Below, one piece after another: positions 13,820-58,240 of a stretch of DNA of 64,000 nt; position 1 is the first letter of the stretch, and each line of letters opens with the position of its first letter. The notes beneath the pieces are model-generated. The model worked only from the letters and a program-made list of their open reading frames with translations. It searched no databases and was not told the DNA's origin. The DNA is taken from the NCBI GenBank assembly GCA_030599585.1, contig JAUVNS010000004.1, positions 1 through 64,000 of the forward strand. The letters are read 5' to 3'. A program made the position numbers and the translations under genes. This DNA is from Promethearchaeota archaeon (lineage in GTDB: Archaea > Asgardarchaeota > Lokiarchaeia > Sigyniarchaeales > SOKP01).

Positions 13820-15733
13820 ATTTCGCTAGATTTTGCCTTAAAAGATTTTTATAGGAAACGCGAGACCACCTTCTCTTATACAATGATGATCGTTTTAGTT
13901 ATAGCGTTCACTGTATTTTTAATTAATTTCACCTCCTCGATAGGTTTTAACAGTTTTATAACCTACGATTATGAAAATTCGTTCTTTTTTTCAGGTGGGA
14001 TTAGCATTATCTTTATTGATTTCACTTCATTAGTGCTTATTCTTGTGCTAATCTTAGCTTTTGTGGTTGTCATTATCGTTAGTATTACTTTGATTATAAC
14101 CAAAAAGCGCGATATAGCGATCATGAAGGCCTTAGGTTCAATCCCTCAGAGATTGTATGGTTTCTACTTGACAGAAGTTTATGTGGTTTTTCTTATTGGT
14201 TTTTTCATTGGAGCTATAATAGGGTTTATTTCATATGTAATTTTCTTCTTTATAGCTTCAATTTTAGGGGCCTTAGCTACCTTTCAAGTTGATGTTATCT
14301 ATCTTCCTATTCTGTTTATATCGTGTTTAGTAGGGATTTATCTGTTTCCTGGAGTCGCGTTAAGGAAATTAGGAATGCAAAACACTATAAAATTATTTTC
14401 TAGAGATATTCCCTCGAACTACGACGCTTCAAAAAAATTAACAACAATTCCAAAGTGGTTAAGTTCAATCGGGTATAATGTAAAAATTTCAGTATTAAAT
14501 ACTCTTAGGAGGAGGGGTGAATTTAAGAGATATTTAATCGTATTTACAATTATCTCTCTTATAATTTTTACTTTAGGGTTAGGAAGTATTGTCCTAAAGA
14601 CGTCTTCCCAAGAATGGATTAAAAAGTCGCAAGGAACAAATATTGTTGCGATTGGTCATAAAGATGTCCTTCAAAACTACACTTTAATGTATGATATGTT
14701 CTCCAATCCGGACATTCTGGTAACACAAGATGATATTGACTTTCTTAACCCCGATTACTTGTTTAATCTTTCTAAAGTTGAAGAATTAACTAATTTTACT
14801 GAAATTGAAAGGGTTGACCAGCGATTAATCAATTTTTTTAACGTTACCGAGCTAGACGGATACCATTTTTTTGAAGATGGAGGTTCTTTGGCAGTTGGTC
14901 AAGATAGAAAAGCAATTATCCCTATAATAGGGTTTAATGCGAGCGAAATCATACAAGATTTTGAGATTGTGGGTGAATACATTGCTGTCGAGGATAATGT
15001 CAATATGATGATAGGAGACGGATTAGGATATAATCTATTTGATTATCCGTTAGATCAAAGCATGCGCATTGAAGAACTTGGAACGGGTCATCCATTCCAC
15101 ATTTCAGCAGTCGTTATAGATAGTTTTTACAGCGGTTCTGCGGGATATGTAGATTTAAGTATTATGCAAGGAGATCTGAACTTTAGTTCGAATGAGATTA
15201 ATCTTCTCTTACTTAAGATAAAATCTAGTGAGTATGCTGACGTAATTGGAGATATTGAGTTGATTATTCAAGCGAATCTAGGAGAAAATTTTAGTTTTGT
15301 CAATTTAAATCAAACTTTTGAGAATAACTATTCCTATCTTGAAATCCTAACTTTTTATCCCCTACTAATTATTATTCTGATGGCGATAATTTCGATTTTC
15401 GCATTGTACAATTATCAAAAAGGCAATATTTTAGAAAAGGCTAAAGATTTCCTAATTATGAGAGCTGTTGGTGCCAAATATAAGTCCATTAAGAAGATTC
15501 TCTTTTTGGAAGCCCTTTACATGATCATCCCGTCCTTGCTGCTAAGTATGGGGATTGGAATGATAATAAACTCTTTAGTATTATTCGATCGCGTTTATTT
15601 ACCCAGCTTATCGTTGCCAATTATTATCGTAGGGTTATTATTTATCGCTTTCCTAGCTTTTAATTATATATCTTTATTTCCAATTCTTTCAAAGATAAAA
15701 AAATTTACTATCAAAGATTTCGATATATGGTAG
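13820..15733 (+). CDS. FtsX/MacB-type ABC permease (probable ATT start at 13820; first ATG 13883)
   Basis: Two FtsX modules (KRDIAIMKALG, KDFLIMRAVGA). Upstream in-frame SLDFALKDFYRK resembles the family N-terminus. Confidence 0.85.
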   Translation: MSLDFALKDFYRKRETTFSYTMMIVLVIAFTVFLINFTSSIGFNSFITYDYENSFFFSGGISIIFIDFTSLVLILVLILAFVVVIIVSITLIITKKRDIAIMKALGSIPQRLYGFYLTEVYVVFLIGFFIGAIIGFISYVIFFFIASILGALATFQVDVIYLPILFISCLVGIYLFPGVALRKLGMQNTIKLFSRDIPSNYDASKKLTTIPKWLSSIGYNVKISVLNTLRRRGEFKRYLIVFTIISLIIFTLGLGSIVLKTSSQEWIKKSQGTNIVAIGHKDVLQNYTLMYDMFSNPDILVTQDDIDFLNPDYLFNLSKVEELTNFTEIERVDQRLINFFNVTELDGYHFFEDGGSLAVGQDRKAIIPIIGFNASEIIQDFEIVGEYIAVEDNVNMMIGDGLGYNLFDYPLDQSMRIEELGTGHPFHISAVVIDSFYSGSAGYVDLSIMQGDLNFSSNEINLLLLKIKSSEYADVIGDIELIIQANLGENFSFVNLNQTFENNYSYLEILTFYPLLIIILMAIISIFALYNYQKGNILEKAKDFLIMRAVGAKYKSIKKILFLEALYMIIPSLLLSMGIGMIINSLVLFDRVYLPSLSLPIIIVGLLFIAFLAFNYISLFPILSKIKKFTIKDFDIW

Positions 15734-15826
15734 ATAATTTTTGTATCAGAAAGAAAAATTTTAAAAAAGTGAAATAGATGAAGTATATATGAACTTATTT
15801 TTTCTAATCTAAACGATCACTAAGAT

Positions 15827-17188
15827 ATGGTAATGACAGAAGAAGAAAAATTACTGAGGAAAATCCAAGATTTACAATATGAATTAGATAAAAAGGAAAT
15901 TCAAATTAATAGTCAGTTAGATAAAATTGATGGTCAAGAAGTAGAGATCATGAAATACGAGCAAATGTTCGACGAAAATGCTCCAAAGAGTAAAATAAAA
16001 AAAGCCAAGGAAGATAAGCTAAACATTGAAATAGACGCAAGAGGACGAGAGATTCGCGAATTGAAGGACCGAATGGGCTTCTTAAGAAAAGAAAAAATAG
16101 ACTTACAGAAGAAATATGAGCTTGAGGTAAAAAAGAATACAGATACTTCTGTTATTAGTGTAGAAGAAATTAGAGAGAAGGAGAAACCACCTTTAAACGT
16201 ATTACTACAAGAGCTACAAGATAAGATTAACAAACAAGAATCGATGATTAGAAGGTTAAAAAGTGGAGAAATAGGGTTAAACGGTAAAGATAGCAGAAAG
16301 GACGAACATAACGCGATTTTAGAAGAAAAAGATAAAAAAATTGAAATACTCACTGATCAAATTGCTACACTTGACGATCGTATTGTTGCACTTAATGATA
16401 ACTTAAGTAAACCCGTTCCCGATATAGAAAAAGACGATAAACCTTCGAGTAATAATATCTCGAAAATTCTCTTAGAAGACCTCCAAAATAACCTAACTAA
16501 AGTAAAAAGACGCAATAACGAGTTAAAAAAGAAATTAGAAAAATATGAAAAGAAAGATAAAAGCAAAAAGGGATCGGAAGAAAATAATCAAGTAATAGAA
16601 TTGCAAAGTATAATTTCTCAATTAACGAGCGAGTTAGAGCATAAGAATAAAATAATTGAAGATAATACCATATCTAGCATTCATACGGAGAGTGAATCGG
16701 ATGCTGACTCACTACATTCCGTTGTAGAAGAATTAAAAAGTAAGCTAAGTAAAGCTAAATCACAAATAGCATCTTTTCAGATTGCTCAAGAACATAGTTT
16801 TAAAAGTCTAGCTCCAGGGGAGAATGAAGGAAAATTAAAAATTCAAAGAGAGATGGCTAGTTTTCTACAAAAACAATTAGCAGAAGCAAACAGCGCTCTA
16901 AAAACAAAAGAGGAAGCAATTATAACAATCAAAACAGAGGCAATAAGGATAAAAAAAAAATACGAAGCGTTAGAAAACCTTATTAAATCGAAAGATCGAG
17001 AAACAAATGAATTAAATACAGAGATTGCGTCGCTTAAAATGCAAATTCAGACTCAAAAACCTACATCGCACTCCATCCATCCTGATGTAAGATTAAGACT
17101 CAAAGAGCTCCAGAGTTTGGTAGACGATTTAAGCAAACAAACGATTCAGCAAAGATTAGAAATCTCTCAATTAAGAAAGAACAAGTAA
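15827..17188 (+). CDS. Long coiled-coil protein of unknown function
   Basis: Heptad E/K/L/Q-rich throughout; no Walker motifs. Confidence 0.75.
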   Translation: MVMTEEEKLLRKIQDLQYELDKKEIQINSQLDKIDGQEVEIMKYEQMFDENAPKSKIKKAKEDKLNIEIDARGREIRELKDRMGFLRKEKIDLQKKYELEVKKNTDTSVISVEEIREKEKPPLNVLLQELQDKINKQESMIRRLKSGEIGLNGKDSRKDEHNAILEEKDKKIEILTDQIATLDDRIVALNDNLSKPVPDIEKDDKPSSNNISKILLEDLQNNLTKVKRRNNELKKKLEKYEKKDKSKKGSEENNQVIELQSIISQLTSELEHKNKIIEDNTISSIHTESESDADSLHSVVEELKSKLSKAKSQIASFQIAQEHSFKSLAPGENEGKLKIQREMASFLQKQLAEANSALKTKEEAIITIKTEAIRIKKKYEALENLIKSKDRETNELNTEIASLKMQIQTQKPTSHSIHPDVRLRLKELQSLVDDLSKQTIQQRLEISQLRKNK

Positions 17189-17193
17189 TAGAA

Positions 17194-18177
17194 ATGGAAA
17201 TTATTATCTTAGGCTCTTCAGCCGCTATACCTGTTCGCGAAAGAAACCTCTCTTCAACCGCTCTTAAGTATAAAAGCGAACTCCTATTATTTGATTGTGG
17301 AGAAGACACCCAAAGAAAGCTTGTCGAAGCTGGTTTGAAGTTCAACAAACCCTTAAAGATATTAATATCACACTTTCATGGGGACCATATAATAGGCCTT
17401 CCGGGATTACTTTTTAGATTCGGTTTAAACCGTAGAACTGCCCCTGTTACTATCTTTGGGCCTGTAAACCTTTTTCTATACCTCTCTGTTCATAGAAAGG
17501 TTCTTGGTCTTAAACCTAATTATCCCATAACTGTAATAGAAATAGATGATAAACAAAACCAACTAATAATTTATGAAAGCTTGGACTCTGAATTACCGAA
17601 AGTAAAATTAAACATAAAGGAAAATACGATATTTGACGGGAGTAAATATGCTCTTAAATATACTTTAGTTGACCATTCAGTTCTAGCTTTTGCATATTCA
17701 TTTATAGAAAAGCCACGAAGTGGCAAGTTTAACCCAGAAAAAGCTAAAGAACTCGGAATTCCTGAGAGTGTTCTCTGGAAAAAGTTACAAGAAGGAGAAT
17801 GTATCGATTATAATGGTACACTAATTGATCCGATAAAGGAAAACATTGTAGCTCCAAAAAGAAAGGGACGAAAAGTGACGTACTCTGGAGATACATCCCC
17901 TTGTAAAAGCTTAATCGAATTAGGAAAAAATTCTGATATTTTAGTCCACGAAGCTACTTTTTCGAAGGAGTTATCAGATATGGCAATCGAAAAAAAGCAC
18001 TCCACTGCTACTGACGCAGCAACTGATGCAAAGAAAATGGGAGCAAAGCAGTTGATATTAACACACATATCCTCCCGCTATAGAGATGATAGTTTACTGA
18101 AATTACTCGAAGAAGCAAAGGAAGTTTTTCCTAACACGTTAATTGCTGAAGATTTAATGAGGGTTGAATTAAAATAA
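17194..18177 (+). CDS. rnz: Ribonuclease Z
   Basis: FDCGE, SHFHGDH, YSGDT, HEAT and LTHIS motifs; exosite arm. Confidence 0.96.
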   Translation: MEIIILGSSAAIPVRERNLSSTALKYKSELLLFDCGEDTQRKLVEAGLKFNKPLKILISHFHGDHIIGLPGLLFRFGLNRRTAPVTIFGPVNLFLYLSVHRKVLGLKPNYPITVIEIDDKQNQLIIYESLDSELPKVKLNIKENTIFDGSKYALKYTLVDHSVLAFAYSFIEKPRSGKFNPEKAKELGIPESVLWKKLQEGECIDYNGTLIDPIKENIVAPKRKGRKVTYSGDTSPCKSLIELGKNSDILVHEATFSKELSDMAIEKKHSTATDAATDAKKMGAKQLILTHISSRYRDDSLLKLLEEAKEVFPNTLIAEDLMRVELK

Positions 18178-18212
18178 GATTTTTAATAAAGAGAAGATAA
18201 AAAAATTTTAGT

Positions 18213-18410
18213 TTAGCCTCCCGCTATATGGGGTAATATAGTTATGGACGAGTCCTTGTTGATGATATCACTTTCACTTGCTTTTTTGCCATCAATAATT
18301 ATCCCAAAGTATTTTCCTTCGAGATTTAGTTCTTTGAGTAAATCGCCGACTGACATTTCCCGTTCGGGAGTAATAGTTTCCACAATTCCAGTTTCTAAAA
18401 GATCTGCTAT
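18213..18410 (-). CDS. ThiS/MoaD/SAMP-type ubiquitin-like protein (not in ORF track)
   Basis: Hand translation ADLLETGIVETITPEREMSVGDLLKELNLEGKYFGIIIDGKK...ITILPHIAGG* ends in GG. Start is ATA 18410 or GTG 18383. Confidence 0.85.
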   Translation of the reverse strand: MADLLETGIVETITPEREMSVGDLLKELNLEGKYFGIIIDGKKASESDIINKDSSITILPHIAGG

Positions 18411-18746
18411 TTGTCGAATAATAATAACCTTTAATATAGTTTTACTAGTTTAAATAAAACCATCTACCTATTTAAAATTAATTCAAGAAATAGATAAGTA
18501 TTGAGAATTTATCCGGTGCAATTTTACAATACCCAAACTGTCTCAATTTGGCATTTAAGTCAAATTAATTAGTTTTTGTAAGCAAAGAATTTCGATTTTT
18601 TTATTATGGGAAAAACCATTATTTTTATGTGTATTTTAATTTTATTGCATAAATTTGACTTTTATTTAAAGGGTTGATCTCAGATTCTTCAAGAGGATTC
18701 ATTTAGCGATTATGGCGATTATCTTAAGAAAGTTAGAGATTTATTA

Positions 18747-20339
18747 ATGGAAATTAATACGCTTGAAGATAAAAAAGAAAAAACCAACCAAAGTCAAAAA
18801 ATTATTAACGATTCTATTATAACAGCTAATGAAATCTCTGAATCTGGAGAATTTTTTGAAGCTGGAGAATTCCTTATCTCAATAGCGGAATTATTAGAAG
18901 GACTTGTTTCTTTTCATTCTGTTAAGTTATACAAGCTAACTATTAAATATTGGAATAACGAAATAAACTCCTTTAAATTGCAAGGGAAACTTCACGAAGT
19001 AGCTGAGATTTTCTTACGGATAGCAGAACTTTACGAAAAATTAGAGGAACCGAAATCTTATAAAAAGAATATCCTAGGAAGTATAGATTATCTGAAGCGA
19101 GAAAGTAAATTGTTAAAGGATTTTAACGAAAGCAGAAAACTCGCTCAAAATTATGAGAATATAGCGGGACTCTACAAAACAAAAGTGATGGATCATAAAA
19201 ACGCAATAAAATATTATCTCAATGTCATTGAAATCGCAAAACAATACTCCTATTTTGAATTGCTCTCGTATTCTTATCAACAAATATCAGAATGTTATCA
19301 AGAACTAGACGAAATTGAAAAATCCAACAGTATAATCTATGATGGTATCGAGTTTTTCTCATCGCTTTTTCAAACTTTTGAAGAAAAAAACGATAATCTG
19401 GGGATATCTCAGATAGCTCAAGTTTTAAAATCTCTTTATCACCTTATCGATGATGAAGAACAGTTTATTATCTACTCTAAAAAGGAAGCTGGTGCTTACA
19501 TAAATTTAGCGGAAAGATTAGAAAAAAGCCAAGAAAACTACTATAAAATTGCTCGATACTATCGGGGTGCTGCTTTATGCTATCAAGAGATTAATAATAA
19601 CCTTATCGAATCTGCTTCCTGTTTTGTTTTAGCAGGGAATTATAATGAAGGGATTTACGAATATAATGAGGCGGCTATAAATTTTTTCAACGCCGCTGTA
19701 ATATTTAAAGAATTAAACAATTTAGAAATGACTTACAAGCATTACGTTAAAGCTGGAGATAACTATTGGAAAAAAAAAAACGTAAATGATTCGACTGAGA
19801 GCTATTTGAATGCTTACGATATTGCTGTAGAGGGTGGCTTAGAATATAATAAATTTGGCATTTTTAATCAAATTGTTAGAGGTTTAAACATAATAGCAAA
19901 AGAAGGGTTAAAAAACAAACAATTTTACACCGCAGCAACCTTAATTATGGAAAGTATCAAATTTTATCAACAATTGGATACCGCCAAGGACTTTCTTGTA
20001 AATGAGATGCTAAAGAATGTCTACAGATATTACTATAAAGCTGCTAATTTGAAAAAAATCGGAAGCTCCCATATAGTACAATCATATGTGATGGCTGCTA
20101 TTTCATCTATCCTTAATGGAAATATTGATAAAGCGCTGGATATCCTTTCAGAGATAGAATTAGAAGGAAATACCGTGAATAAATACAAGGAATTAGTCCA
20201 AATTATTATTGATTGGGTCTCTGAGGGGATAGAGGTTGAATTTGAAAACTTTCCATATGATATAAAAAGAATAATAATAGGTTCTGAAGAAATTGGCTAT
20301 CTTTTAAGGTTCTTTAAAGGATATAGAGTGTATTACTAA
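18747..20339 (+). CDS. All-helical TPR/alpha-SNAP-like repeat protein
   Basis: Repeated AxxY/FxxAAxxY/F helical pairs. Confidence 0.65.
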   Translation: MEINTLEDKKEKTNQSQKIINDSIITANEISESGEFFEAGEFLISIAELLEGLVSFHSVKLYKLTIKYWNNEINSFKLQGKLHEVAEIFLRIAELYEKLEEPKSYKKNILGSIDYLKRESKLLKDFNESRKLAQNYENIAGLYKTKVMDHKNAIKYYLNVIEIAKQYSYFELLSYSYQQISECYQELDEIEKSNSIIYDGIEFFSSLFQTFEEKNDNLGISQIAQVLKSLYHLIDDEEQFIIYSKKEAGAYINLAERLEKSQENYYKIARYYRGAALCYQEINNNLIESASCFVLAGNYNEGIYEYNEAAINFFNAAVIFKELNNLEMTYKHYVKAGDNYWKKKNVNDSTESYLNAYDIAVEGGLEYNKFGIFNQIVRGLNIIAKEGLKNKQFYTAATLIMESIKFYQQLDTAKDFLVNEMLKNVYRYYYKAANLKKIGSSHIVQSYVMAAISSILNGNIDKALDILSEIELEGNTVNKYKELVQIIIDWVSEGIEVEFENFPYDIKRIIIGSEEIGYLLRFFKGYRVYY

Positions 20340-20500
20340 CATTACTAACTAAATTTTTAACTAGAAACAATATAAATAAATAGATCATCGTTTATTCTAT
20401 TTATAAGACCTTAATATCGTACGATCGCTTATTAGTCTGGCATACTATGATGTTTTGGATATAAAACTCTCAAATTCTAACATTTTATTAGGTTTTTAAA

Positions 20501-21679: not shown

Positions 21680-21778
21680 TTTCAGCTTCAAATTAGTAAG
21701 ATTTTATTAATTTTTTTCAATTTTTTTTTTCTCAAGTGCCTTCAAACTTTTTTTATCTCTCTTCATGTATTTTAATAA

Positions 21779-22435: not shown

Positions 22436-22480
22436 AAAATAATAAAGTAAAGCTATAAAAAAAGTAAAAAAGAAAAATAA

Positions 22481-40732: not shown

Positions 40733-41143
40733 ATGGCTAAGAAGAAGAGTAGCAAAAGTAGTAGTAATGATAACAAAAAATGTGCAAATTGTGGTAAACT
40801 CGTTAAGTCCTATTCCTATGGGTATTACTGTAGCTCATGTGCAGAAGAAATTTGGGATCGGGGTTTTGACTCAACAACACAGCATGCCGAGGAGTTATAT
40901 GAACAAGACTTGAAAGAAAATAAGGAGATCAATAAAAAAATCAATAAAGGCAATATTAGTTATAATATCGTTCGAAATTTGATCGGATATAAGTCAGGAA
41001 CTTTTCGCTGTTCAAAATGTAATAAATTAAGACTGGAATGGATTCATTTCCCTAATTCACCCATCAAAGACGAGAAACTTCGATTATTGCTTAAAACACC
41101 CTGTCGTAAATGTAAGGTGGTGGGTTTTTTAAATTTTTCTTGA
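40733..41143 (+). CDS. Small double zinc-finger protein
   Basis: CANC/CSSC and CSKC/CRKC pairs; strong SD AGGAGG. Confidence 0.7.
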   Translation: MAKKKSSKSSSNDNKKCANCGKLVKSYSYGYYCSSCAEEIWDRGFDSTTQHAEELYEQDLKENKEINKKINKGNISYNIVRNLIGYKSGTFRCSKCNKLRLEWIHFPNSPIKDEKLRLLLKTPCRKCKVVGFLNFS

Positions 41144-41401
41144 AGCTTTACTCCGTTGAGAAACTTGATGACTATGAACAGCGCAACTTATACAGTAATA
41201 TTTTTTCGTACTTGCAGACATAATAATCGTCCCAGTCTTCTTTAATTCGCTGAACATGCGCCCGTCAACCAAATTGGTTCGTTGCGTTACTGCCTTAGCC
41301 TTACTCCGTGGAACCCTTCGTCCACATTTACTGCATTGAACCGTCTTATAACTTCCCTTACTTGAGCCGGTTTTACCGCCACTTCTTCTCTTCTTAGGAA
41401 T
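41129..41401 (-). CDS. rps26e: 30S ribosomal protein eS26 (ATT start; not in ORF track)
   Basis: Hand translation (M)PKKRRSGGKTGSSKGSYKTVQCSKCGRRVPRSKAK...YYCISCAVHSHQVSQRS. Confidence 0.95.
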   Translation of the reverse strand: MPKKRRSGGKTGSSKGSYKTVQCSKCGRRVPRSKAKAVTQRTNLVDGRMFSELKKTGTIIMSASTKKYYCISCAVHSHQVSQRSKASRKI

Positions 41402-41537: not shown

Positions 41538-42221
41538 TTATTTTTTATCGTGCGTTTCAATCTTACTTATTTCTTTAAAAGAAAATACTAATCTTTGTGC
41601 TATTGTCAAAATTAGTAGTCCTGTAAAGATTATCGTGAATATCGGGAAAAAAAGTTCGAAAGGAGCTCCATAAAATAGGTTGGATAAGAAAAAAATCCAA
41701 AATTCTGCAATAAAGGCAAACCATAAAATGATTAATCTTTCAGCTCTTTCCATAAAGCCCACGCCTTTCATCACAATTCCCTCATTTTCCGCTCTGGAGC
41801 GAATATAAGAAATCATAATAATTAAGAATAGTATCGTATATCCAATTATATAATTAAAATATCCCCCTATTATTAATCCAAAGACTATAATGGCATCAGA
41901 AAGGCGATCTAAGTTCGAATCTAAAAATGCTCCTGAATTGGAAATTTTCTGAGTCATCCGGGCTACTTCTCCATCGAACACATCAAAAGCACCCGCCCAA
42001 AACATAAAAAATGGGACGATCCAAGCTATAGGAAAGGGAAAATGTAACCCTCCTAATGAGAGTAAAATAGCAACCGCTATTGAACAGAAGAAGCCACTAA
42101 ATGAAAGTATATTTGGAGTAAATCCCCATTTAACTAACATTTTAGCCGGGAGCTCGACAAATATTTCTAAAATTCTTCTCTGATTGCTCCTTTTATCAGT
42201 GGCTTGTTCAATTTTGCTCAA
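41538..42221 (-). CDS. CDP-alcohol phosphatidyltransferase (archaetidylinositol-phosphate synthase-like)
   Basis: TPN, DVFDGEVAR...GAFLDSNLDRLSD, SYIRSRAE and MERAER. Confidence 0.9.
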   Translation of the reverse strand: MSKIEQATDKRSNQRRILEIFVELPAKMLVKWGFTPNILSFSGFFCSIAVAILLSLGGLHFPFPIAWIVPFFMFWAGAFDVFDGEVARMTQKISNSGAFLDSNLDRLSDAIIVFGLIIGGYFNYIIGYTILFLIIMISYIRSRAENEGIVMKGVGFMERAERLIILWFAFIAEFWIFFLSNLFYGAPFELFFPIFTIIFTGLLILTIAQRLVFSFKEISKIETHDKK

Positions 42222-42285
42222 TATTTAATCCTAATTATGTTTTGACGATAATACAATTTAAAAGTACTCTAAAATAAAAAATTTA

Positions 42286-44040: not shown

Positions 44041-44175
44041 TTTAGTATTATTTATAAACGATATGATAATTTTATAATTTAATATGAAGTATCAATTTGG
44101 AGCCATTTGAGTTTCATAGAAGGAATATTCTAATGAGTTTCGTTAAATAATAGAAAGCTAAGGAGATAAAATAAA

Positions 44176-44979
44176 TTGGATATAGAATTACCTTTCAAAC
44201 ATGAAGATGAGAAAAATTTCTTAAATAAGATTCATCCTTTAATTCGATTCATTCTTCCGTTTATCTTAGTTGTACCCTTTCTTATTATAAACGATGTTTA
44301 TTTAGTAATTACGATTATTATTTTTGTTATATTTTTCAATTTAGTGTTTCGCCTACATCTATTAAATATTTTTTCAAAACTTAAAGCGTTAATTCCATTT
44401 ATACTTCTTATTACAATTTTTGTTCCTTTTTATGTTGGAAACACCGTACTCTTTCAATTAAACATTGGAATTCCACTAAATATTTATGTGGAAGGATTAG
44501 CTTATGCCTTAACTCTATTTTTTCGAATTATTGGGGCGGCGTTTGTATTCTTAACCTTTCTAACATCTTTAACTTATTCTGAATTTATTGAAGCATTAAC
44601 TAAATTAAGAGCAATTCCCTCATTTTTTGTAGGTAGTATTATTATCATGCTTCATTACATCCCAATTCTCGCAAAATCTAATAAAAAAGTACTAGAAGCA
44701 CAGGATTTAAGAGGAAAAAACTTTACATCGTATTGGCAAAGGCTTAAAACTCACGGGTTCATAATGGGAAAGAATGTAGTACACAATATGGAAAGAAGCG
44801 AAAAACTATACGAGAGTTTAAAAATGAGGGGATTTTCTGGTAAAATTACCTTTTCTTCAAAGAAGGTAAAATTAGCGGATATACTAATAGTAATGATATT
44901 TGTGTTTATTATGATTTCATTCATCTATTTTATCAATCTAGAACAGATATACATGGGGGTTTTTCAATTATTAGTCTAA
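44176..44979 (+). CDS. cbiQ: ECF transporter transmembrane (T) component
   Basis: KIHP, AQDLRG and SLKMRGF motifs. Confidence 0.88.
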   Translation: MDIELPFKHEDEKNFLNKIHPLIRFILPFILVVPFLIINDVYLVITIIIFVIFFNLVFRLHLLNIFSKLKALIPFILLITIFVPFYVGNTVLFQLNIGIPLNIYVEGLAYALTLFFRIIGAAFVFLTFLTSLTYSEFIEALTKLRAIPSFFVGSIIIMLHYIPILAKSNKKVLEAQDLRGKNFTSYWQRLKTHGFIMGKNVVHNMERSEKLYESLKMRGFSGKITFSSKKVKLADILIVMIFVFIMISFIYFINLEQIYMGVFQLLV

Positions 44980-45719
44980 TAGAAGTGGAAAAAATAAATT
45001 TTGAGTACAATTCAAGTTTTTCTCTTAACGATTTATCTTTAACCATAAAAGAAAATTCGATCTACGCTTTAACAGGGAATAACGGGTCTGGTAAAACTAC
45101 GTTTCTCAGGTTATTAGTTGGTTTACTAAAACCTAAATCTGGAACTATTAAAATTTTCAACGAACTCCTGACTAGAGATAAACAACAACTCTGGAGACTT
45201 AGACAAAAAATCGGATTTTTATTCCAAAACCCAGATGATCAATTATTTGCCCCAACTATAGGAGAGGATGTAGGTTTTGGAGCAAGAAATCTTGGACTTG
45301 AAGAGCCTGAAGTGAACAAGAGAGTTGAATGGGCGCTCGAAGCTGTTAATTTATCGCAATATACTAAAAGTTCTCCGTACGATTTATCCTGGGGACAGAA
45401 AAAACGAGCTGCTTTAGCAGGACTATTAGTAATGAAGCCTAAACTATTAATATTAGACGAACCCTTCGCAAATCTTGATTTTAAATCAATTTATAACCAC
45501 CTACAAATTTTTAAAACCCTTAAAAAAGAGCAAAAGATGACAATTTTATTTACTACTCACAATCTTTTTTTTATAGAACATTGGGCAGATAAAATGCTTG
45601 TATTAAACGATGGAAGGGCTATATTTGAAGGTCTTCCTAAGGATGGATTAAACCTTCCCAAAATCAAGCAATTATTGGGGTCGTATAACGAACTCTTAAC
45701 TCTTATCAACCAAAAGTAA
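44970..45719 (+). CDS. cbiO: ECF transporter ATPase (probable ATT start 44970; GTG 44985 in track)
   Basis: GNNGSGKT, FQNPDDQLF, LSWGQKKR and LDEP; upstream in-frame SLIE completes the first strand. Confidence 0.92.
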   Translation: MSLIEVEKINFEYNSSFSLNDLSLTIKENSIYALTGNNGSGKTTFLRLLVGLLKPKSGTIKIFNELLTRDKQQLWRLRQKIGFLFQNPDDQLFAPTIGEDVGFGARNLGLEEPEVNKRVEWALEAVNLSQYTKSSPYDLSWGQKKRAALAGLLVMKPKLLILDEPFANLDFKSIYNHLQIFKTLKKEQKMTILFTTHNLFFIEHWADKMLVLNDGRAIFEGLPKDGLNLPKIKQLLGSYNELLTLINQK

Positions 45720-46137: not shown

Positions 46138-46617
46138 CTATAAAAGACTTATCGAATCTGAGCTGAATAGCTCTTTTAATTCTTTATTCATTTCGCTTTG
46201 ATCTTCTTGTTGAAGATAGTTATTAAGAACCGAAGCAATTTTTTGTGAGTATTTGTTCATGATTGCTCTCACGAGTCCTATTTGAATATTTTTATCGGTT
46301 GCAATACATAAGATACCCTTCCCGACTTTTAGCGAAAAGATCATCCCTTTAAAATATTCAGTTATTTGTAAATGTATCTTTCCATACCCTAAGATATATC
46401 CTTGTTCCTCGCCAGCCGTAAATACAGCTCCTCCAATCGCACCTATTTTTTCAACAGAAATGTCTTCTTCGGTAGGAGACTTTAATATGAATTTTGATTC
46501 GCTCATTATAGTTATCCCCGTATCATCTATGATTATAGCATATTTCAAGCCGGGCGTGCTATGAATAATTTCCTTAAGTATTTTCTTTAATATGCGTTCA
46601 TCATTAGAATAACTCAA
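46138..46617 (-). CDS. Roadblock/LC7 (MglB/LAMTOR-like) protein
   Basis: TPGLKYAIIIDDTGITI, IGAIGGAVF...LGYG and IQIGLVR. Confidence 0.88.
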   Translation of the reverse strand: MSYSNDERILKKILKEIIHSTPGLKYAIIIDDTGITIMSESKFILKSPTEEDISVEKIGAIGGAVFTAGEEQGYILGYGKIHLQITEYFKGMIFSLKVGKGILCIATDKNIQIGLVRAIMNKYSQKIASVLNNYLQQEDQSEMNKELKELFSSDSISLL

Positions 46618-46782
46618 TAACCTTCAATACACCTTCTTTTTGAGCGATAATTCTTTTTCTTGAGTGCGTTTTTTATTTTAAAAAGAATTTATTTAAAGTA
46701 AACTCACTCACTTTAATATAAAAATAAAAATTAATCTATAAAAACTTAATTCACTCGAAATAGTTTTATGTTGCGCAACGAA

Positions 46783-47139
46783 TTAAAATAACTCTTGCGA
46801 CCTAATCAAAGTTTTTAAGGGTTTTACTCTGTTTTTATTATTTTTCGATTTTTCGAGTAAAATAAATAGTTTAAAGTTTTTCCCTTTGTCTATATCGAAT
46901 TTTAATTGGACCAGATTTGGATCATTTATTACTTCTTTATTCTCCTTATTCTTCGAGATTGCCCACAATGCTAATTTGTTCTCGTGAATCCAAAGCCGTT
47001 TTGAGATATTTGCGCCTATTGTAAATCCATTTCTATCAGTGATAACGCCCGCAACAAAGTTAGGAAAGTTTATTTTAATCTTATGTAAAAAATAATTAAC
47101 TTCCATTTGATTTATCAATCTAACATTTTCCTGTTTCAT
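46783..47139 (-). CDS. Divergent roadblock-like protein
   Basis: FPNFVAGVITDRNGFTIGA matches the roadblock N-terminal pattern; ATG 47139 preferred. Confidence 0.55.
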   Translation of the reverse strand: MKQENVRLINQMEVNYFLHKIKINFPNFVAGVITDRNGFTIGANISKRLWIHENKLALWAISKNKENKEVINDPNLVQLKFDIDKGKNFKLFILLEKSKNNKNRVKPLKTLIRSQELF

Positions 47140-47304: not shown

Positions 47305-48276
47305 TTATCTTTCTTTTCCTTTAATTCCCAGATCCAGATTCTCTACTAACTCGTTAAACCTATTACGAACCGTTACCTCTGTGACTTGAGACGTCTTAGC
47401 TATTGCGCGTTGCGTCCTCCTCTCCTTAGTTATGATGCTCGCGGCATAAATAGCTGCGGCACACACTCCAGTTGGACCACGTCCAGAGGTAAGACCTCTT
47501 AGTTCAGCCATCTTGATTACTTTTTTTGCTATCTTCAGACACTCAGTGGACAATTCAAGTTCTGAAACAAAGCGAGTAAGAAAATCTAAGGGTTTAGTGG
47601 GATTTAAGTTTAGTTCTAACTCCTTTGAGATAAATCGATAAGATCGCCCTATCTCTTTTTTGTTAACACGAGCAACTTCAGCAATTTCATTTAAAGTGCG
47701 TGGTACTTTATACATTCTGCATGCAGCATATAAACTTGCAGCCGCAACTCCTTCGATACTTCTCCCCCGAATTAAGTGAGCTTCAACTGCATCTCTATAA
47801 ATCTTAGCTGAACACTCGCGGAGGTTTTTCTGAAGATCGAGACTTGACGACATTCTATCTAACTCACTTAACGCAAAGGTTAAGTTTCTTTCGGTGGCAT
47901 CTGAAACTCTAATTCGGGATTGCCACTTTCGCAAACGATATATCTGTCCTCTGATTTTGGCTGAGATCTCTTTACCAAAGATATCTTTGTTCTTCCAATC
48001 AATCATAGTGCTCAAGCCTTTGTCGTGGATCATCAACGTCATAGGAGCACCAGTTCTTGTTCTTTTCTTTCTTTGATCTGAGTCAAAAGCACGCCATTCT
48101 GGACCTTGGTCTATGTGTTTTTCAGAGTGAACTAATCCACATTTTTCACAAACTAATAAGCCTCTATTTGCATCAAATAAAATATTTTTACCGCATTCAG
48201 TACAATTATCTTGACTTAACACTGTATTTTTTTCTACGGTTGCATCGCTATGATTCCAACTTGAAATAAATAACAC
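47305..48276 (-). CDS. tfb: Transcription initiation factor IIB (start GTG 48276 or ATT 48267)
   Basis: CTECG...CEKCG Zn ribbon, GPEWRAF, HDKGLST and cyclin repeats. Confidence 0.97.
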
Positions 48277-48313: not shown

Positions 48314-48565
48314 TTATCTCATTTTAGCATAAAAATTGTCATTCGGGTTAAATTCCTTCTTTGGAGAAATTTTCATCGAAATGAATGGTAGTTCTTCTGG
48401 ACCAAAGATCTCTACAATTTTTCCTATCTCGTCAAATTCTTCAGTAAAAACGGGTCTATTAGTTATTTTTTCTAAACTTTTGTTCCACTTTGTCGTTCTA
48501 AAAATCTGATGTTTTTTCGATTTTCCGAGATAGAACAGATTTAATTTATTATATTTTTGCGTAAC
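48314..48565 (-). CDS. gar1: H/ACA RNP protein Gar1/Naf1 family (not in ORF track; start codon uncertain)
   Basis: Hand translation ...PVFTEEFDEIGKIVEIFGPEELPFISMK...; usual archaeal position upstream of tfb. Confidence 0.8.
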   Translation of the reverse strand, partial: VTQKYNKLNLFYLGKSKKHQIFRTTKWNKSLEKITNRPVFTEEFDEIGKIVEIFGPEELPFISMKISPKKEFNPNDNFYAKMR

Positions 48566-51912: not shown

Positions 51913-52024
51913 TTAGAAGTATTATCCTTTTGTAATTAAATTAATTTATTTCGCCATTTTAAAACAAATCCGCAATCTAGCTTTGCTTATCATACGATCA
52001 ACAAGTTAATTAAGGAAAGTAGCT

Positions 52025-52612
52025 TTAACAAGGTTCAACTTTATAATCTCCTCGTTTATACATTTCAAATAAGATTTCAGCTTCATGAATTGCGTCATCC
52101 ACTGCTCTATGTTTTTCAATATAGCTCGTATTAGGGAATATATTATCCCAGGCTTCTTGCATTTTTGGATTTTTATAACCTCCTCTTGAACGCATAATTT
52201 TACATACCTCTTTAGCAACTGCCATAATATCTGGGATATCCTTTTTTATAATAAAGCCTCTAGATTCCATATATCCAAAATCAAATGCTGTGTTATACGC
52301 AGTTAATGAATATTGATCTAAAATTTCTTGAATTTGTTTTTTAACATGGTTTAAACTAGGTGCGTCCTCAATATCTTCGAATTTCAAATCAGAGTTATTG
52401 AAAATCCAAGCGTTTCTGTGCGATTCTCCAAAAGGTAATTCTTTTACCAACGAATCAAATAATATTCGAGTTGTTCCAGTTACTAAATCAAGCTCAACAA
52501 TACCTATCTCAATTATACACCCTTCTTTTTTGATTTTAGTTGTTTCTATATCAATAACAGCAATTTTTTTAGAATTAGGCTTTTTAACAAAGTCATTAAT
52601 ATCTCGAAAAAT
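52025..52612 (-). CDS. DEDDh 3'-5' exonuclease (probable ATT start 52612)
   Basis: ExoI IDIETT lies upstream of the track's TTG; AYNTAFD and HRAVDDA; SD GGGAGGAG 6 nt before ATT. Confidence 0.9.
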   Translation of the reverse strand: MFRDINDFVKKPNSKKIAVIDIETTKIKKEGCIIEIGIVELDLVTGTTRILFDSLVKELPFGESHRNAWIFNNSDLKFEDIEDAPSLNHVKKQIQEILDQYSLTAYNTAFDFGYMESRGFIIKKDIPDIMAVAKEVCKIMRSRGGYKNPKMQEAWDNIFPNTSYIEKHRAVDDAIHEAEILFEMYKRGDYKVEPC

Positions 52613-52753
52613 ATGAAACTCCTCCCAAAGATATGATTTTTTTTAATCTATACTATTGATATTAATCTTAATAAAAAAAATGTAATTGAAATGAAATATA
52701 AATCATTAGAGAGTGATTACTAAAGCGATTTTGATCTAAAACTTACACACGAT

Positions 52754-53725
52754 CTAATAAATAACAAAATTTGTATAAGTCTTAAGTTCATCTAGAACAA
52801 AACTGGTAAAAGTATCCTCAATTTCATCGGATTGATATAAAATTTTTATGAATTCTGCGTAATCATCGACCTTTTTTACACGAACTATCGCAAATAAACC
52901 ATGTTGTTCCCCTATCCTGAAAAGATCGGTTATAAAGCTATTTTTTTCTAAATTTAAGGCAATTTCATTATACCTTGAAGGATCCTTGGGTTTAATTCTT
53001 ACGAGATATTTACCTCTAAATCCAATTTTTTTAGGACAAAAGTTAAGCGTATAATTAAGAATTACGTTATTTTTTTCAAGCTTTTTAATTCTGTTATGAA
53101 TTGTAGATTGGGAGATTTCTTGTAAAAAATCTTTGTACTTCTCTTTAATTATATCTTTAATCTCGTATGTCGAGATTGGTTTTATACTCTGGTTTTCTTG
53201 CATTATTTTTAAGATTACATAATCGATGCTATCAATTTCGAAATTGGGATCAATTTTATTGACATTTAACTCAATTCCATTAGTTTTGAACACTTTAATT
53301 GTCTCAATTATTTGGTATTTCTTAAAATATGATTGAGCCATTATTGTATCTATTATACTTAAAACCTGGTAATACTCCTCAGATGAATGAAAAATGAGTA
53401 AAGCAAATAGAGAATATTCCCCTAAAACTCCATCAAGAATTTTTAATTGAGAGATTTTTAACAAATTTTCCAAAAGTTCTGGTTCGTTAGGGTTGGTTTT
53501 AATCTCTAGCAATACATACTTTAAATTAATGGGAAGAATATTCGGATTAATATTGATTGTGAAATTACTAATTATTTTTTGACCCCTCAGAATATCAAGT
53601 TTATTCTGGTAAGTTTGTCTAGAGAGACCCAACGCGCGGGAATTTTTCGATATTACAAACTTGGTTTTACCTGTTAGATTTTTAATGAAGTGGTGGGCCT
53701 CCACTAAATATTTACTATTCTGCAT
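52754..53725 (-). CDS. Tandem (double) Lrp/AsnC-family transcriptional regulator
   Basis: Two HTH-RAM units (LGLSRQTYQNKL; ISQSTIHNRIKKLE); divergent from ahcY. Confidence 0.82.
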   Translation of the reverse strand: MQNSKYLVEAHHFIKNLTGKTKFVISKNSRALGLSRQTYQNKLDILRGQKIISNFTININPNILPINLKYVLLEIKTNPNEPELLENLLKISQLKILDGVLGEYSLFALLIFHSSEEYYQVLSIIDTIMAQSYFKKYQIIETIKVFKTNGIELNVNKIDPNFEIDSIDYVILKIMQENQSIKPISTYEIKDIIKEKYKDFLQEISQSTIHNRIKKLEKNNVILNYTLNFCPKKIGFRGKYLVRIKPKDPSRYNEIALNLEKNSFITDLFRIGEQHGLFAIVRVKKVDDYAEFIKILYQSDEIEDTFTSFVLDELKTYTNFVIY

Positions 53726-53864
53726 AATATAACAATTTTGCACTTTTCTTCGGTAATATTAATTAAATGTTAAATAGATTTTAATTAAACTTTTGCCTTT
53801 AACCAAAAAAAGATTTATTAATTAATTAAAATTTATCTTCTTACAAAAAAGAAAATGATTTATT

Positions 53865-55133
53865 ATGGTAAATTATAAAGTTGCAGATGAAAACTTAGCT
53901 GGAAAAGGCAAAGAAGCGATATACATCGCTGAATCTAGAATGCCTGTTTCTGCTATAACAATTCGAGAACGATTCGCTAAGGAAAGACCTTTAGAAGGAA
54001 TCACAATTGCGGGCTGTCTTCATATCACAAAAGAAACTGCAAATCTTGCCAGAACTTTAAAGGCAGGAGGCGCCGATGTTTGGTTATGTGGAAGTAATCC
54101 CCTATCAACTCAAGATGATGTAGCGGCAGCTATGGTTAAAGAAGGAATTAATACATTTGCGTGGCATGGTAATACCGATGAGGAATTTTACTGGTGTATT
54201 CGAGAGTGTTTAAAAGCTAAACCAAATATCCTTATTGATGATGGTGCTGATATGATCGTTACAGCACATAAAGAATTTCCTGAACTAATTACGGATGGTG
54301 TAATAATCGGATGTCAAGAAGAAACTACTACAGGGGTAAAAAGATTCAGAGCAATGGATGCCGCTGGCGATCTAAAAGTCCCATTATTTCCTGTAAATGA
54401 TGCCCGATGTAAAAATCAATTCGATAACGAGTTAGGTACAGGACAAGGAATTGTTGCTGCCATCTATGGGATGCACGTACTTTTCGCAGGAAAAAATGTA
54501 GTAATAGCGGGATATGGCCATTGTTCTTCAGGAATGGCCCTTAGAGCACGAGGTTTGGGTGCCAATGTTACAGTGACTGAAATTGATCCGATAAAAGCTC
54601 TTCAAGCTAAATTTGCTGGTTTTAATGTTATGCCTATAGAAACAGCATTGCCTTATGCGGATATTATCTTAACTGCTACGGGTTGTAAGCACGTAATATT
54701 ACCTACCAAAGAGAATTTTGACGCTTTAAAGGATGGCGTCATTTTAGGCAATTTAGGACATTTCGACATTGAGATCCCAACCAAGGAGATTTATGAGTAT
54801 GCTAAGGAAATCAAACCTATAAGAAGTGATGTAGAAGAAATCACCTTTCCTGATGGCAAAAGAATATATCTGCTTGCTAAAGGAAGACTGGCTAATTTAG
54901 TTCTTTCTGAAGGTCACCCTGCAGAAGTCATGGATATGTCATTTGGCTTACAATCTCTCATGTCTGAATACATCGTTAAAAACAAAGATTCATTGAAACC
55001 TGGAATGGTAGAGGTTCCCGTTGAAATTGACGATAGAGTTGGATTCTTGAAACTTCAAGCAATGGGTATAGAAATAGATAAGCTCAATGAAGAACAATAT
55101 AACTACATCCACGGCTACGAACAAGGAACTTAA
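53865..55133 (+). CDS. ahcY: Adenosylhomocysteinase
   Basis: GSNPLSTQD, EETTTGV, GRLANL and GHPAEVMDMSF. Confidence 0.97.
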   Translation: MVNYKVADENLAGKGKEAIYIAESRMPVSAITIRERFAKERPLEGITIAGCLHITKETANLARTLKAGGADVWLCGSNPLSTQDDVAAAMVKEGINTFAWHGNTDEEFYWCIRECLKAKPNILIDDGADMIVTAHKEFPELITDGVIIGCQEETTTGVKRFRAMDAAGDLKVPLFPVNDARCKNQFDNELGTGQGIVAAIYGMHVLFAGKNVVIAGYGHCSSGMALRARGLGANVTVTEIDPIKALQAKFAGFNVMPIETALPYADIILTATGCKHVILPTKENFDALKDGVILGNLGHFDIEIPTKEIYEYAKEIKPIRSDVEEITFPDGKRIYLLAKGRLANLVLSEGHPAEVMDMSFGLQSLMSEYIVKNKDSLKPGMVEVPVEIDDRVGFLKLQAMGIEIDKLNEEQYNYIHGYEQGT

Positions 55134-55202
55134 AAACGCTCTAAATTTTAATATTTTTTAAAAACTTTTCAATTTTTCTTATTTCTTTTATTATTCTATT
55201 GT

Positions 55203-56243
55203 TCAGGCTTTAGGATTCAAAATATCACTAGCTGAAGCATCGTTGTAGATTTCTTTTGCCAAATTTTTTAATCCCTCTAAACCAATAGGTTCTTCTTTAA
55301 GTCTATTAGACTCCCATATTTTTTCATTTTTAAACTCGCTTTTAATCTCAACTAAATATCGCTGCTGAATTGAGGAAATTTGACCACAAAAGTCGCACTT
55401 CTTCGCATGTTTCTTAGGAATTATCATGTTGATATGAATGGCATCAAGGTTAATATATCTATTTGTTAAATCTCTTGCTCGTTTGACTTCTTCAAAGCTT
55501 GGTTTCTCAGCAATTGAAACTAGTCTTAATGATCCTACGGTATGGATCAATTCTGAGATTCTCTCACCACGGTTCTCCAAAGCAACCATCATATTAAAAA
55601 TATCTTTACCTAGTTCTTTTCTTTTTTCGTAATCATCATCAAAAGGTTTAAAAAGTTGTCTAAACATCTTTGAAAAATTCTGCATCGCCCCTTTAATAGA
55701 ATTATAGAAATTTAATGAATATTTTAGGACAACTTTGACCTGATCCTCTGGGATTTCAAAAAGAGTGATCATGTTAGCAGTCGGAGGAAAATCAGCTATA
55801 ATGATATCAAATTGTAAATCTTGAGAATTATTGTCCTCTGCATCTAAGATTTTTTGAAAAAACATGGCATTTTTTAAAGCCAAGGGTATAGAATCTGAAG
55901 TAAAAGTAGTATCAATAAATTCCTCAATTTGTGGGATTCTACCAACTAAAGGCATCTGCTTCATAAGAGTTTTCATCTTATTAACTAAATCCTTAGTATA
56001 AATTTCAGCGTATACATTTGCATCGGGTTCAATCGCCCACAAATTACTCGTAATAGGTGTAATTGTGTTTCCTATATCTTTTGATAGGAGATCTGATAAA
56101 TTATGAGCCATATCAAAAGAAATGAGAAGCAACTTCTTTTCTGGTAATAAATCCGATAATAATACTGCAGTCGCAGCACTTATGCTGCTTTTCCCGACTC
56201 CACCTTTCCCACCTAAAACTAATATTTTCTCTATCATTGCCAA
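55203..56243 (-). CDS. ArsA/Get3 (TRC40)-family ATPase
   Basis: GGKGGVGKSS, DMAHNLSD, DFPPTAN, CDFC and EPIGLEGL. Confidence 0.88.
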   Translation of the reverse strand: MAMIEKILVLGGKGGVGKSSISAATAVLLSDLLPEKKLLLISFDMAHNLSDLLSKDIGNTITPITSNLWAIEPDANVYAEIYTKDLVNKMKTLMKQMPLVGRIPQIEEFIDTTFTSDSIPLALKNAMFFQKILDAEDNNSQDLQFDIIIADFPPTANMITLFEIPEDQVKVVLKYSLNFYNSIKGAMQNFSKMFRQLFKPFDDDYEKRKELGKDIFNMMVALENRGERISELIHTVGSLRLVSIAEKPSFEEVKRARDLTNRYINLDAIHINMIIPKKHAKKCDFCGQISSIQQRYLVEIKSEFKNEKIWESNRLKEEPIGLEGLKNLAKEIYNDASASDILNPKA

Positions 56244-56342
56244 TAATAAGATTTGTTGTTATTCAAAATTAGAAATTAAATATCATAAATAATGATATTT
56301 ATTTAATCCATAATTCAAGAATTTTAGTAATTCGACATCAAA

Positions 56343-56525
56343 TTATTGATTATTTTTAGGGAAAAAAACTAACCTCCCAGAAATAGAGGGTTGGTCAGCA
56401 TTCTTATTTTCCTCGAAATAAAAATAAAATCTCCCAATATCAGTATTGATTCGGTATTTCGTTCTTTTTTTTGCATTTTTTGCAAAAATTTCCCTTACTA
56501 GTTTTCCGTTCCAGTAAAGACTCAT
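56343..56525 (-). CDS. Small hypothetical protein (frame open upstream to about 56636)
   Basis: 60-aa ORF upstream of arsA; no motif. Confidence 0.35.
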   Translation of the reverse strand: MSLYWNGKLVREIFAKNAKKRTKYRINTDIGRFYFYFEENKNADQPSISGRLVFFPKNNQ

Positions 56526-56739
56526 GCAAGTAAAATTATAATCATGAAATAAAAAATCACATTTTATGGAGATAATATAACTATGAAGGTCAATTCTTAT
56601 TTTATTCTTAAATTGACAAAAGATAAATCTAATAAATTATTCTTATAAACTAGTCATCAATAAAATTTTGATTATTTATTACAAATTAAATTTCCAATTC
56701 ATATTATTACATTAAAATATTAATCGAATAAGTAAATTT

Positions 56740-56781
56740 TTCAATAAATATCGTAAATTATTCAATAAATATCGTAAATTA
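56740..56781. repeat. Perfect 21-bp tandem repeat x2 in an extremely AT-rich intergenic region
   Basis: TTCAATAAATATCGTAAATTA at 56740-56760 and 56761-56781. Confidence 0.93.
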
Positions 56782-57061
56782 AACAAATTAATCAAGTAAA
56801 TCAATCAAAAAAAAAAATCAATCAAAGAATTAAATTAAAATTATTATTCAAACTTATAACGATATACAGGAAGTATACCTAATTCAAGCTTAATAAAGGT
56901 AAACAAAACAATTCCAAAAGATTAAGTATTCAAGATCTTGGTTAGAAATAATCAATTTAACCGTAGGTCTTATCCATTAGTTGGATTTTACTTCTTTTTA
57001 TAAGTTTATAATTAATTTTGATTCTTTGATAAAATCAAATATTAAAAAGAAAAAAGGAGTG

Positions 57062-58240
57062 ATGAAAATTACATCTAATACTGTAGATTTTACTACTAAA
57101 TATGTTATAGAAGCCAAGTTCAAAATTAAAGGTGTCGTTGCACAATCAGACATAGTGGGAGCAGTTTTTGGACAAACCGAGGGATTGCTCTTAGACTTGG
57201 ATTTACGTGATCTTCAAAAATCTGGACGAATCGGGAGAATTGAAGTTGATAACGAATCTAAGGATGGGATATCTGAAGGAATTATTAAAATCCCCTCTAG
57301 CCTAACTCGTAAAGAGACTGCTCTGTTAGCTGCGACTGTAGAAACAGTTTCTCGCGTAGGTCCTTGTGAGGCTGAAATTGAATTAATAGATATCCGAGAT
57401 GTCAGAGAATCTAAACGTAAACAAATTATTGAGCGTGCTGCAGAATTATTAAGAAAATGGGATGAGAATTCTTTAGAATCGAGCGAGATCGAAGAAAAAA
57501 TCGACGCAGGTATTAAACTTGGAGAAATAACATCTTGGGGTCCGGAGAACTTACCCGCAGGTCCCAATGTTGATTCTAGCCAAGAATTAATAATCGTTGA
57601 AGGTCGAGCAGATGTATTAAACCTCTTACGAATCGGAGTTAAAAATACCATTGCAACCCAAGGCACACACGTACCAAAATCTGTTGTAAAATTAATTAAG
57701 ACTAAAAAACCTGTGATAGCGTTCTTAGATGGAGATCGTGGGGGCACCATTATATTGAATGAATTAATGCAACGAGCAAAAGTTGATTTTGTAGCTAGAG
57801 CACCTGAAGGCTTAGAAGTTGAGGAACTTACTCGTAAACAAATGATTAAAGCTCTTCAGAACAAGAAACCCGCAAGGGATAAAAAAACATCATATAGCAA
57901 AGCGAAAAAGGAAGATGCTGGAAAAGGCACTTTGTTGGAAAAATTGCTTAAGAAGTTAAAAGTAAAAAATCAGAAAGCGTTAATCGATAGTCTCGAGAAA
58001 ATTGAGCCCGGATATAGTATAGGATTTAATAAGAGTATGGAGAAACTATTTGAACTCCCAGTGGGAGAAGTCTTTGCAAAAATTAATGAGTTTAAAGATA
58101 CTCAATTTCTAGTAATATACGGAATTCTCTCTAAACGATTGATCTCACTAATAGTAAAGATGAAAGTAAAATTTATCGCATGCAAGAACAAAGAGGAAGA
58201 ATTACGAGTACCAGATCAGGTCGCAGTTTATTACTTTTAA
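57062..58240 (+). CDS. dnaG: Archaeal DnaG (exosome-associated, TOPRIM)
   Basis: GAVFGQTEGL, QKSGRIGRI, VEGRADV and FLDGDRGG. Start is ATG 57062 or ATT 57068, not TTG 56981. Confidence 0.95.
   Translation: MKITSNTVDFTTKYVIEAKFKIKGVVAQSDIVGAVFGQTEGLLLDLDLRDLQKSGRIGRIEVDNESKDGISEGIIKIPSSLTRKETALLAATVETVSRVGPCEAEIELIDIRDVRESKRKQIIERAAELLRKWDENSLESSEIEEKIDAGIKLGEITSWGPENLPAGPNVDSSQELIIVEGRADVLNLLRIGVKNTIATQGTHVPKSVVKLIKTKKPVIAFLDGDRGGTIILNELMQRAKVDFVARAPEGLEVEELTRKQMIKALQNKKPARDKKTSYSKAKKEDAGKGTLLEKLLKKLKVKNQKALIDSLEKIEPGYSIGFNKSMEKLFELPVGEVFAKINEFKDTQFLVIYGILSKRLISLIVKMKVKFIACKNKEEELRVPDQVAVYYF

Follow-up and report, generated by a model that had tools for sequence, protein, structure and literature searches.

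Near-cognate start codons in described systems

Translation starts other than ATG, GTG and TTG are known from a small number of systems, and we compare these here with a stretch of archaeal DNA in which several conserved genes very probably begin with ATT or, in one case, ACG. The stretch, called the window in the following, consists of positions 1-64000 of contig C40 (GenBank JAUVNS010000004.1) in the 4.85 Mb assembly (G000, 32% GC) of a Promethearchaeota archaeon, whose uS8 shares up to 95% identity with that of records from Promethearchaeota (Lokiarchaeia); our own gene model counts 52 genes in the window. Throughout, ATH stands for ATT, ATC or ATA, canonical codons are ATG, GTG and TTG, and a start is termed forced if a near-cognate codon lies at the orthologous methionine without a usable canonical start.

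A first class of known systems are animal mitochondria, where initiation at ATN codons relies on a modified tRNA-Met and leaderless mRNA. All ATN codons can likewise start genes in the archaeal family described here, with the difference that initiation appears to be led by Shine-Dalgarno (SD) motifs, that the organisms are free-living, and that internal ATA is still isoleucine. A second class are individual bacterial genes, namely infC (IF3), with an AUU or AUA start, and E. coli pcnB (PMC2830850). The likeness lies in SD-led initiation at ATH and in a weak codon on the fidelity factor's own gene (IF3 there, aIF1 here), whereas infC and pcnB are single regulated genes and here about 3-4% of genes are concerned, including those for ribosomal proteins and transcription factor B (TFB), in an archaeon with aIF1 and aIF2; a feedback loop would here be drawn by analogy. 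A fidelity factor that controls its own synthesis is also known from eIF1, by autoregulation through a poor start context (PMC6237735). Deinococcus harbors near-cognate starts in dnaA (ATC), rpsL (CTG) and infC (PMC2830850), again several conserved information-processing genes, but these cases comprise four bacterial genes, two of them proven by proteomics, compared with an estimated 100-150 genes read from sequence alone in our case.

A third class concerns archaea and start-codon evolution at large. Reviews name AUG, GUG and UUG as archaeal start codons (PMC7531240). Harringtonine profiling in Haloferax assigned about 30% of putative alternative sites to near-cognate codons and set them aside as possible false positives (PMC7261190); archaeal ribosomes are found at such codons there as well, although not at the main starts of conserved genes. 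It is known that GUG and UUG starts are compensated by a stronger SD, and 1 of 61,358 ancestral AUG starts was found switched to AUU (PMC5622118). The pairing of a weak start codon with a strong SD recurs in our data; that survey is based on annotation, which rarely allows AUU, whereas here switches between ATG and ATH recur within single genes. The closest precedent is an ATT start inferred for atubA of Kariarchaeaceae and called 'rare' (PMC13394414), likewise an Asgard gene shortened by annotation, with the ATT placed via structure, alignment and ribosome-binding-site spacing, but a single Heimdallarchaeia gene presented without a lineage-wide claim. Apart from this single-gene remark, the literature searched, with most subscription journals outside its scope, contains no lineage-wide report of Asgard near-cognate starts.

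Start codons of the window genes

For each gene, the start codon was tallied at the aligned position in 4-50 relatives; related genomes share descent, hence tallies across loci are not independent. An initial annotation of the window had proposed mostly AUU starts in up to 8 of about 55 genes, and the named codon stands at all seven coordinates it gave, each within an open reading frame of the named family. Alignment places near-cognate codons in the methionine column of the relatives, and we arrive at 8-9 of the 52 genes.

A first case is ribosomal protein eS26 (minus strand, gene 41129-41401), with ATT at 41399-41401 behind an SD-like GCTGAT motif that itself holds an in-frame TGA. The start column (50 loci across the order: ATT 22, ATG 20, TTG 5, GTG 2, CTG 1) occupies one fixed position 3' of a conserved GGTGA/GCTGA motif. 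In solved eS26 structures from archaea and eukaryotes this position is Met1; the PDB matches include no close Asgard chain. A start at the first canonical codon, 43 codons downstream, would cost half of the length. The DEDDh exonuclease (minus strand, gene 52025-52612) starts with ATT at 52610-52612 behind GGGAGGAG; three close orthologues have ATA at this position and a fourth has ATT immediately after TAA. Here the first canonical codon follows 54 codons downstream, past the DIE catalytic motif. These two losses, together with the conservation as protein of the region that separates ATT from the first canonical codon, make it highly improbable that translation begins downstream or that the genes are decayed or mis-assembled. 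The listed contamination of the assembly (8.9%) and the Gar1 site described below speak for such an error, whereas orthologue conservation contradicts it at all other sites and the same near-cognate codons recur across dozens of independent assemblies.

Two further genes had been proposed with ATT starts, which the columns bear out. The FtsX-type permease (plus strand, gene 13820-15733) starts with ATT at 13820-13822, with GGTG at 13808-13811 and the first canonical codon 21 codons downstream (30 loci: ATG 22, ATT 4, ATA 2, GTG 2). The CbiO/ECF ATPase (plus strand, gene 44970-45719) starts with ATT at 44970-44972, with ATT 44967 as the adjoining alternative; its column is almost uniform (29 loci: ATT 27, three of these one codon upstream, ATG 1, CTG 1), the SD energy is -9.9 kcal/mol, and the first canonical codon lies 5 codons downstream of the ATT. 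The ThiS/ubiquitin-like gene (minus strand, gene 18213-18419) had been assigned ATA 18410, but the orthologous start column is ATT 18417-18419, three codons upstream (30 loci: ATA 10, ATG 8, ATT 7, GTG 3, TTG 1, CTG 1), and the SD energy is -3.8 kcal/mol for ATT 18419 versus -0.3 for ATA 18410. A SNAP/TPR-repeat gene (plus strand, gene 18684-20339), absent from the initial annotation, starts with ATT at 18684-18686; the 9 orthologues displayed have ATT or ATC, with a stop immediately 5' in several.

For TFB and DnaG the initial annotation had called ATT compatible. The codons are present, but an in-frame canonical codon within each SD had gone unmentioned. TFB (minus strand, gene 47305-48267) has ATT at 48265-48267 and GTG 48276 inside the SD; DnaG (plus strand, gene 57068-58240) has its probable start ATT at 57068-57070, with GTG-ATG at 57059/57062 inside the SD. 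Public gene calls start at this TFB GTG and DnaG ATG, and in three close relatives an ATG lies immediately 5' of the DnaG ATT, so it could be argued that the SD-embedded codon, 2-3 codons upstream, is the start of these two genes. The columns point elsewhere: TFB has ATT 23, ATC 5, ATA 1 and TTG 1 in 30 loci, 15 of which carry an in-frame stop two codons before ATH, between SD and start, and among 24 family loci of DnaG, 23 have ATT and 1 has ATA, with a TAG immediately 5' of the codon in one locus. SD pairing is close to absent for the upstream codons themselves, with -1.5 kcal/mol for the TFB GTG and -3.1 for ATG 57062, compared with -10.3 for the DnaG ATT. Taken for both genes, the SD-embedded start is improbable; for TFB it is very improbable, while for DnaG of the present genome it has a minor but real chance. 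The DnaG start is ambiguous, the ATT not being forced in view of the ATG two codons upstream.

Gar1 (minus strand, gene 48314-48562) has no canonical codon ahead of the conserved core, as had been observed before, and its probable start is ACG at 48560-48562. The column holds TTG 25, ATG 3, GTG 1 and ACG 1, the ACG being found in the present genome only, and contigs of runs X3 and X6 from other studies are one base shorter at this site. The Gar1 ACG is recent and functionally the least secure of the sites, and it may be strain-specific.

Several candidates in the window turned out to have ordinary starts, namely CbiQ, CDP-alcohol transferase, FtsY, RNase Z, the roadblock gene at 46138 (conserved TTG) and the candidate at 46783 (ATG). 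Conserved TTG starts are found in three window genes (41538-42224, 44170-44979 and 46138-46623). SecE (58777-59049) has a probable GTG start, and its upstream bases are unusually conserved in relatives, perhaps as a promoter or RNA element common with the adjacent gene.

We note that public gene calls from the contig are shortened for CbiO (244 aa, from an internal GTG), DEDDh (141 aa, without the first catalytic motif), FtsX (616 aa) and the SNAP gene (530 aa), in line with the earlier suggestion that standard gene callers truncate or miss such genes. The eS26, ubiquitin-like and Gar1 forms were looked up in the public protein collection and not found.

Start columns versus internal isoleucine

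The start columns hold NTG, ATN or ACG codons only (eS26 50/50, uS14 78/78, uS8 81/81, TFB 30/30, ubiquitin-like 30/30). Leucine or valine codons in the columns of eS26, uS14, uS8 and the ubiquitin-like gene end in G in 29 of 29 cases, compared with 10-17% in internal isoleucine-rich columns; the start column is therefore not a conserved hydrophobic residue. Earlier starts are excluded because in-frame stops lie just upstream. Invariant isoleucine columns inside the proteins vary more in codon choice, with the commonest codon making up 36-79%, than do the starts of eS26, CbiO and DnaG, where ATT prevails. This uniformity is suggestive of third-base selection, although kinship inflates it and uS8 and uS14 favour ATA.

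Neither assembly error nor decay accounts for the codons, because they occupy the column of the relatives' ATG, GTG or TTG, often directly after an in-frame stop. Logan contigs of run X1 show zero differences over the eS26, CbiO, TFB, Gar1 and DEDDh sites, X1 being probably the source sample and hence not independent, and a contig from a second sample (X2) agrees with the DEDDh site.

A hidden ATG might also be joined from upstream by splicing of a bulge-helix-bulge (BHB) mini-intron, or be made by RNA editing. Intron-like inserts do occur in protein genes of the lineage (uS3 of the present genome, dnaG in 17 relatives). A conserved hairpin is, though, absent, as is any ATG in the 60 nt 5' of the sites in eS26, Gar1 and DEDDh; ATG, GTG, TTG and ATH replace one another at a single position with fixed SD spacing, and editing would need several chemistries. 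We regard this explanation as having only a slight chance of being correct.

The inserts are of interest in their own right. In dnaG of 17 family relatives (L222-L238), an insert of 29-40 nt at about window position 57175 lies inside the Gly-Gln-Thr-Glu codons and breaks the frame; several of these fold in the manner of a tRNA-type (BHB) intron, with a short helix flanked by two 3-nt bulges, and the window dnaG has no insert. The only uS3 copy seen in the genome (G000:C11 near 38150, minus strand, L082) carries a 30-nt hairpin insert with two stops, a probable mini-intron, and interruptions of a similar kind are present in uS8 of G049, G055 and G040.

Genome-wide frequency and Shine-Dalgarno dependence

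In a reference-free scan, the first canonical codon lies more than 12 codons into the coding signal in 335 of 3542 genes. In 69 of these 335, an SD match of 5 or more nt precedes a near-cognate codon, compared with 35.5 +/- 4.6 (maximum 48) in 200 in-gene shuffles, and the ATT spacing from the SD peaks at 6, as for ATG; both results agree with the SD-led starts proposed for the window. The in-gene shuffle is the figure to trust: an off-frame SD control inflates isoleucine codons, and in-frame composition gives an ATT excess of 1.4-2.4-fold. A first codon-by-codon SD screen yielded only ATG, TTG, GTG, CTG and ACG, as the SDs of nearby ATGs swamped ATH, and was replaced.

Automatic, BLAST-based lists of forced starts contained many false cases from upstream noise and were curated by eye. 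Pairing 278 genes with 790 kb of four relatives leaves 8 forced and 3 SD-masked cases after hand curation, i.e. 3-4% (rough 95% range 1.5-7%); genome-wide, we estimate near-cognate starts in 100-150 genes. The rate in the window, and with it the rate expected from the initial annotation, exceeds this genome-wide level. The predominance of AUU is similarly a property of the window, as ATA and ATC are about as common as ATT outside it. Among the 278 paired genes, TTG is the nearest canonical start in 36 and GTG in 10.

An SD match of 5 or more nt is found in only about 16% of ATG genes, consistent with the low prevalence of SDs reported for Lokiarchaea. Pairing with the anti-SD is stronger in near-cognate than in ATG orthologues in 6 of 6 families (mean -2.7 kcal/mol). 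As regards leaderless initiation, the SD is present and stronger than in the ATG copies, and several of the genes sit inside operons. A plus-strand gene near 13529 of L082 and its orthologues in L101-L180 show ACC, ACT, CTT or GTT at the automatic column behind a strong SD (8 loci), which is probably one codon off an ATH.

Distribution across Lokiarchaeia and other Asgard archaea

Near-cognate initiation is, judging from the orthologue alignments, very probably concentrated in one Lokiarchaeia family, at a few per cent of genes. With Asgard genomes as the comparison set, ribosomal-protein genes of the spc/S10 clusters show forced non-canonical starts in 85 of 1266 cases in 80 close loci (uS14 45, uL15 19, uS8 14) and in 3 of 613 cases in 40 loci of 20 other Asgard families; a few of these counts may be intron-split genes, and PF00181 worked poorly as a probe. 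The contrast supports the initial suggestion that relaxed start selection is a property of the lineage. Forced cases are 0/36 in the sister family f2 and 0/99 in a family of 34% GC, hence AT richness alone is insufficient as an explanation. Outside the family, ATT starts occur in eS26 of G032, G030 and G004, near-cognate starts in uS3 of f18, and ATA or CTG starts of aIF1 in four families (f11, f17, f6 and f9).

On a tree of 77 genomes, switches between canonical and near-cognate codons number at least 4 for uS14, 4 for uS8 and 5 for uL15, and large clades retain ATH while the third base drifts. The uS8 gene of the present genome (G000:C28:4135-4521, L081) has an ATA start with a strong SD, and two relatives have ACG.

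Weighing these results, we put the probability that the near-cognate codons of the window are real translation starts at roughly 0.88. Several points weigh against this assignment and its extension to the genome and family. The basis is a comparison of DNA sequences; the DnaG and Gar1 starts are uncertain in the present genome; the figure of 3-4% is hand-curated and drawn from conserved genes; kinship of the genomes makes the permutation test of SD pairing overstate its significance; and the family contrast is carried mainly by three genes, with lower sensitivity in GC-richer genomes.

Initiation machinery and the aIF1 gene

The genome harbors aIF1, aIF1A and aIF2 alpha, beta and gamma, and the 16S rRNA tail (anti-SD) is standard. 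The initiator tRNA gene has a CAU anticodon, A1:U72, three G-C pairs and an intron at 37/38, without changed anticodon or identity elements of the mitochondrial type; modifications are unreadable from DNA. ARAGORN with default settings lists 17 tRNAs only and misses this gene, which a pattern search recovered, and the intron is consistent with the heavily interrupted tRNAs described for Asgard archaea (bioRxiv 10.64898/2026.10.13.758758).

The aIF1 gene (G000:C3:26012-26362, L084) itself has an ATT start, without ATG, GTG or TTG in the first 25 codons after the stop. As in infC, the weak start on the fidelity-factor gene is conserved, with ATH in 11 of 11 family loci (ATT 9, ATC 1, ATA 1); a TGA lies three codons upstream in 10 of these, and the eleventh has only an SD-embedded GTG. 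The aIF1 contig also carries a nearby 16S rRNA 3' end, a second TFB, aIF2-beta and the initiator tRNA. A third TFB paralogue is located at G000:C15:40772-41650, on a contig of 28.9% GC.

Initiation might be real and the machinery changed, either through an initiator tRNA with modified C34 or a lost position-37 modification, or through weakened aIF1 or aIF2, as the initial annotation had supposed for aIF1/aIF2 proofreading. Consistent with this, the family has the lowest Pfam scores of the phylum for aIF1 and aIF2-gamma. Residues next to the basic loop and helix 1 are substituted in its aIF1, and aIF2-gamma (G000:C9:122722-124314, L437) is extended at the N-terminus by a helix-hairpin-helix domain and a linker, to 530 aa versus about 410-430 in most Asgard. 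On the other hand, aIF1 shares with most Asgard the residues K/W/K at the basic-loop positions equivalent to P. abyssi R31/Y32/K34, the GTPase core of aIF2-gamma appears ordinary, the low scores may stem from a long branch, and both the aIF1 substitutions and the long aIF2-gamma also occur in f2, the sister family with 0/36 forced cases. Open aIF2-gamma frames of more than 500 aa are found in both genomes of f2, both of f25 and many of f1; their length does not follow the distribution of near-cognate starts. The range of codons in use, with CTG and ACG besides the three ATH codons, would not be explained by a single anticodon modification. A changed machinery, including the proofreading proposal, is on balance unlikely.

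We lean towards a mechanism with ordinary components. SD pairing with the ordinary 16S tail would anchor the small subunit and put the near-cognate codon into the P site, where the ordinary Met-tRNAi (CAU) would pair with two of three bases, the mismatch being at the third base for ATT, ATA and ATC and at the second for ACG. The protein would start with methionine, and the stronger SD would offset the weaker codon. It is known that aIF1 destabilises complexes on non-AUG mRNA (PMC6237735). The stringency of the family would be lower than in other Asgard groups, yet kept: aIF1 maintains an ATH start on its own gene, which points to an aIF1 that still discriminates start codons. The ATH start of aIF1 would then form an infC-like feedback loop that sets the initiation level of all such genes. 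Within this scheme we infer decoding by Met-tRNAi, the lower efficiency of these starts and the loop itself. A more tentative and rather doubtful extension is that some 100-150 genes, with many ribosomal and transcription factors among them, form a regulon tuned by start stringency, with aIF1 closing the loop via its ATH start.

Implications

Routine ATH, ACG or CTG starts in essential genes would be unusual for a free-living prokaryote. For Asgard proteins, the resulting truncated and missed gene calls distort statements on presence or absence, marker completeness and the constructs used for expression. The family may offer a natural test system for aIF1 control of start-codon fidelity near the root of eukaryotes. 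If the regulon should prove true, it would extend infC-type control to the scale of a genome, in a prokaryote closely related to eukaryotes.

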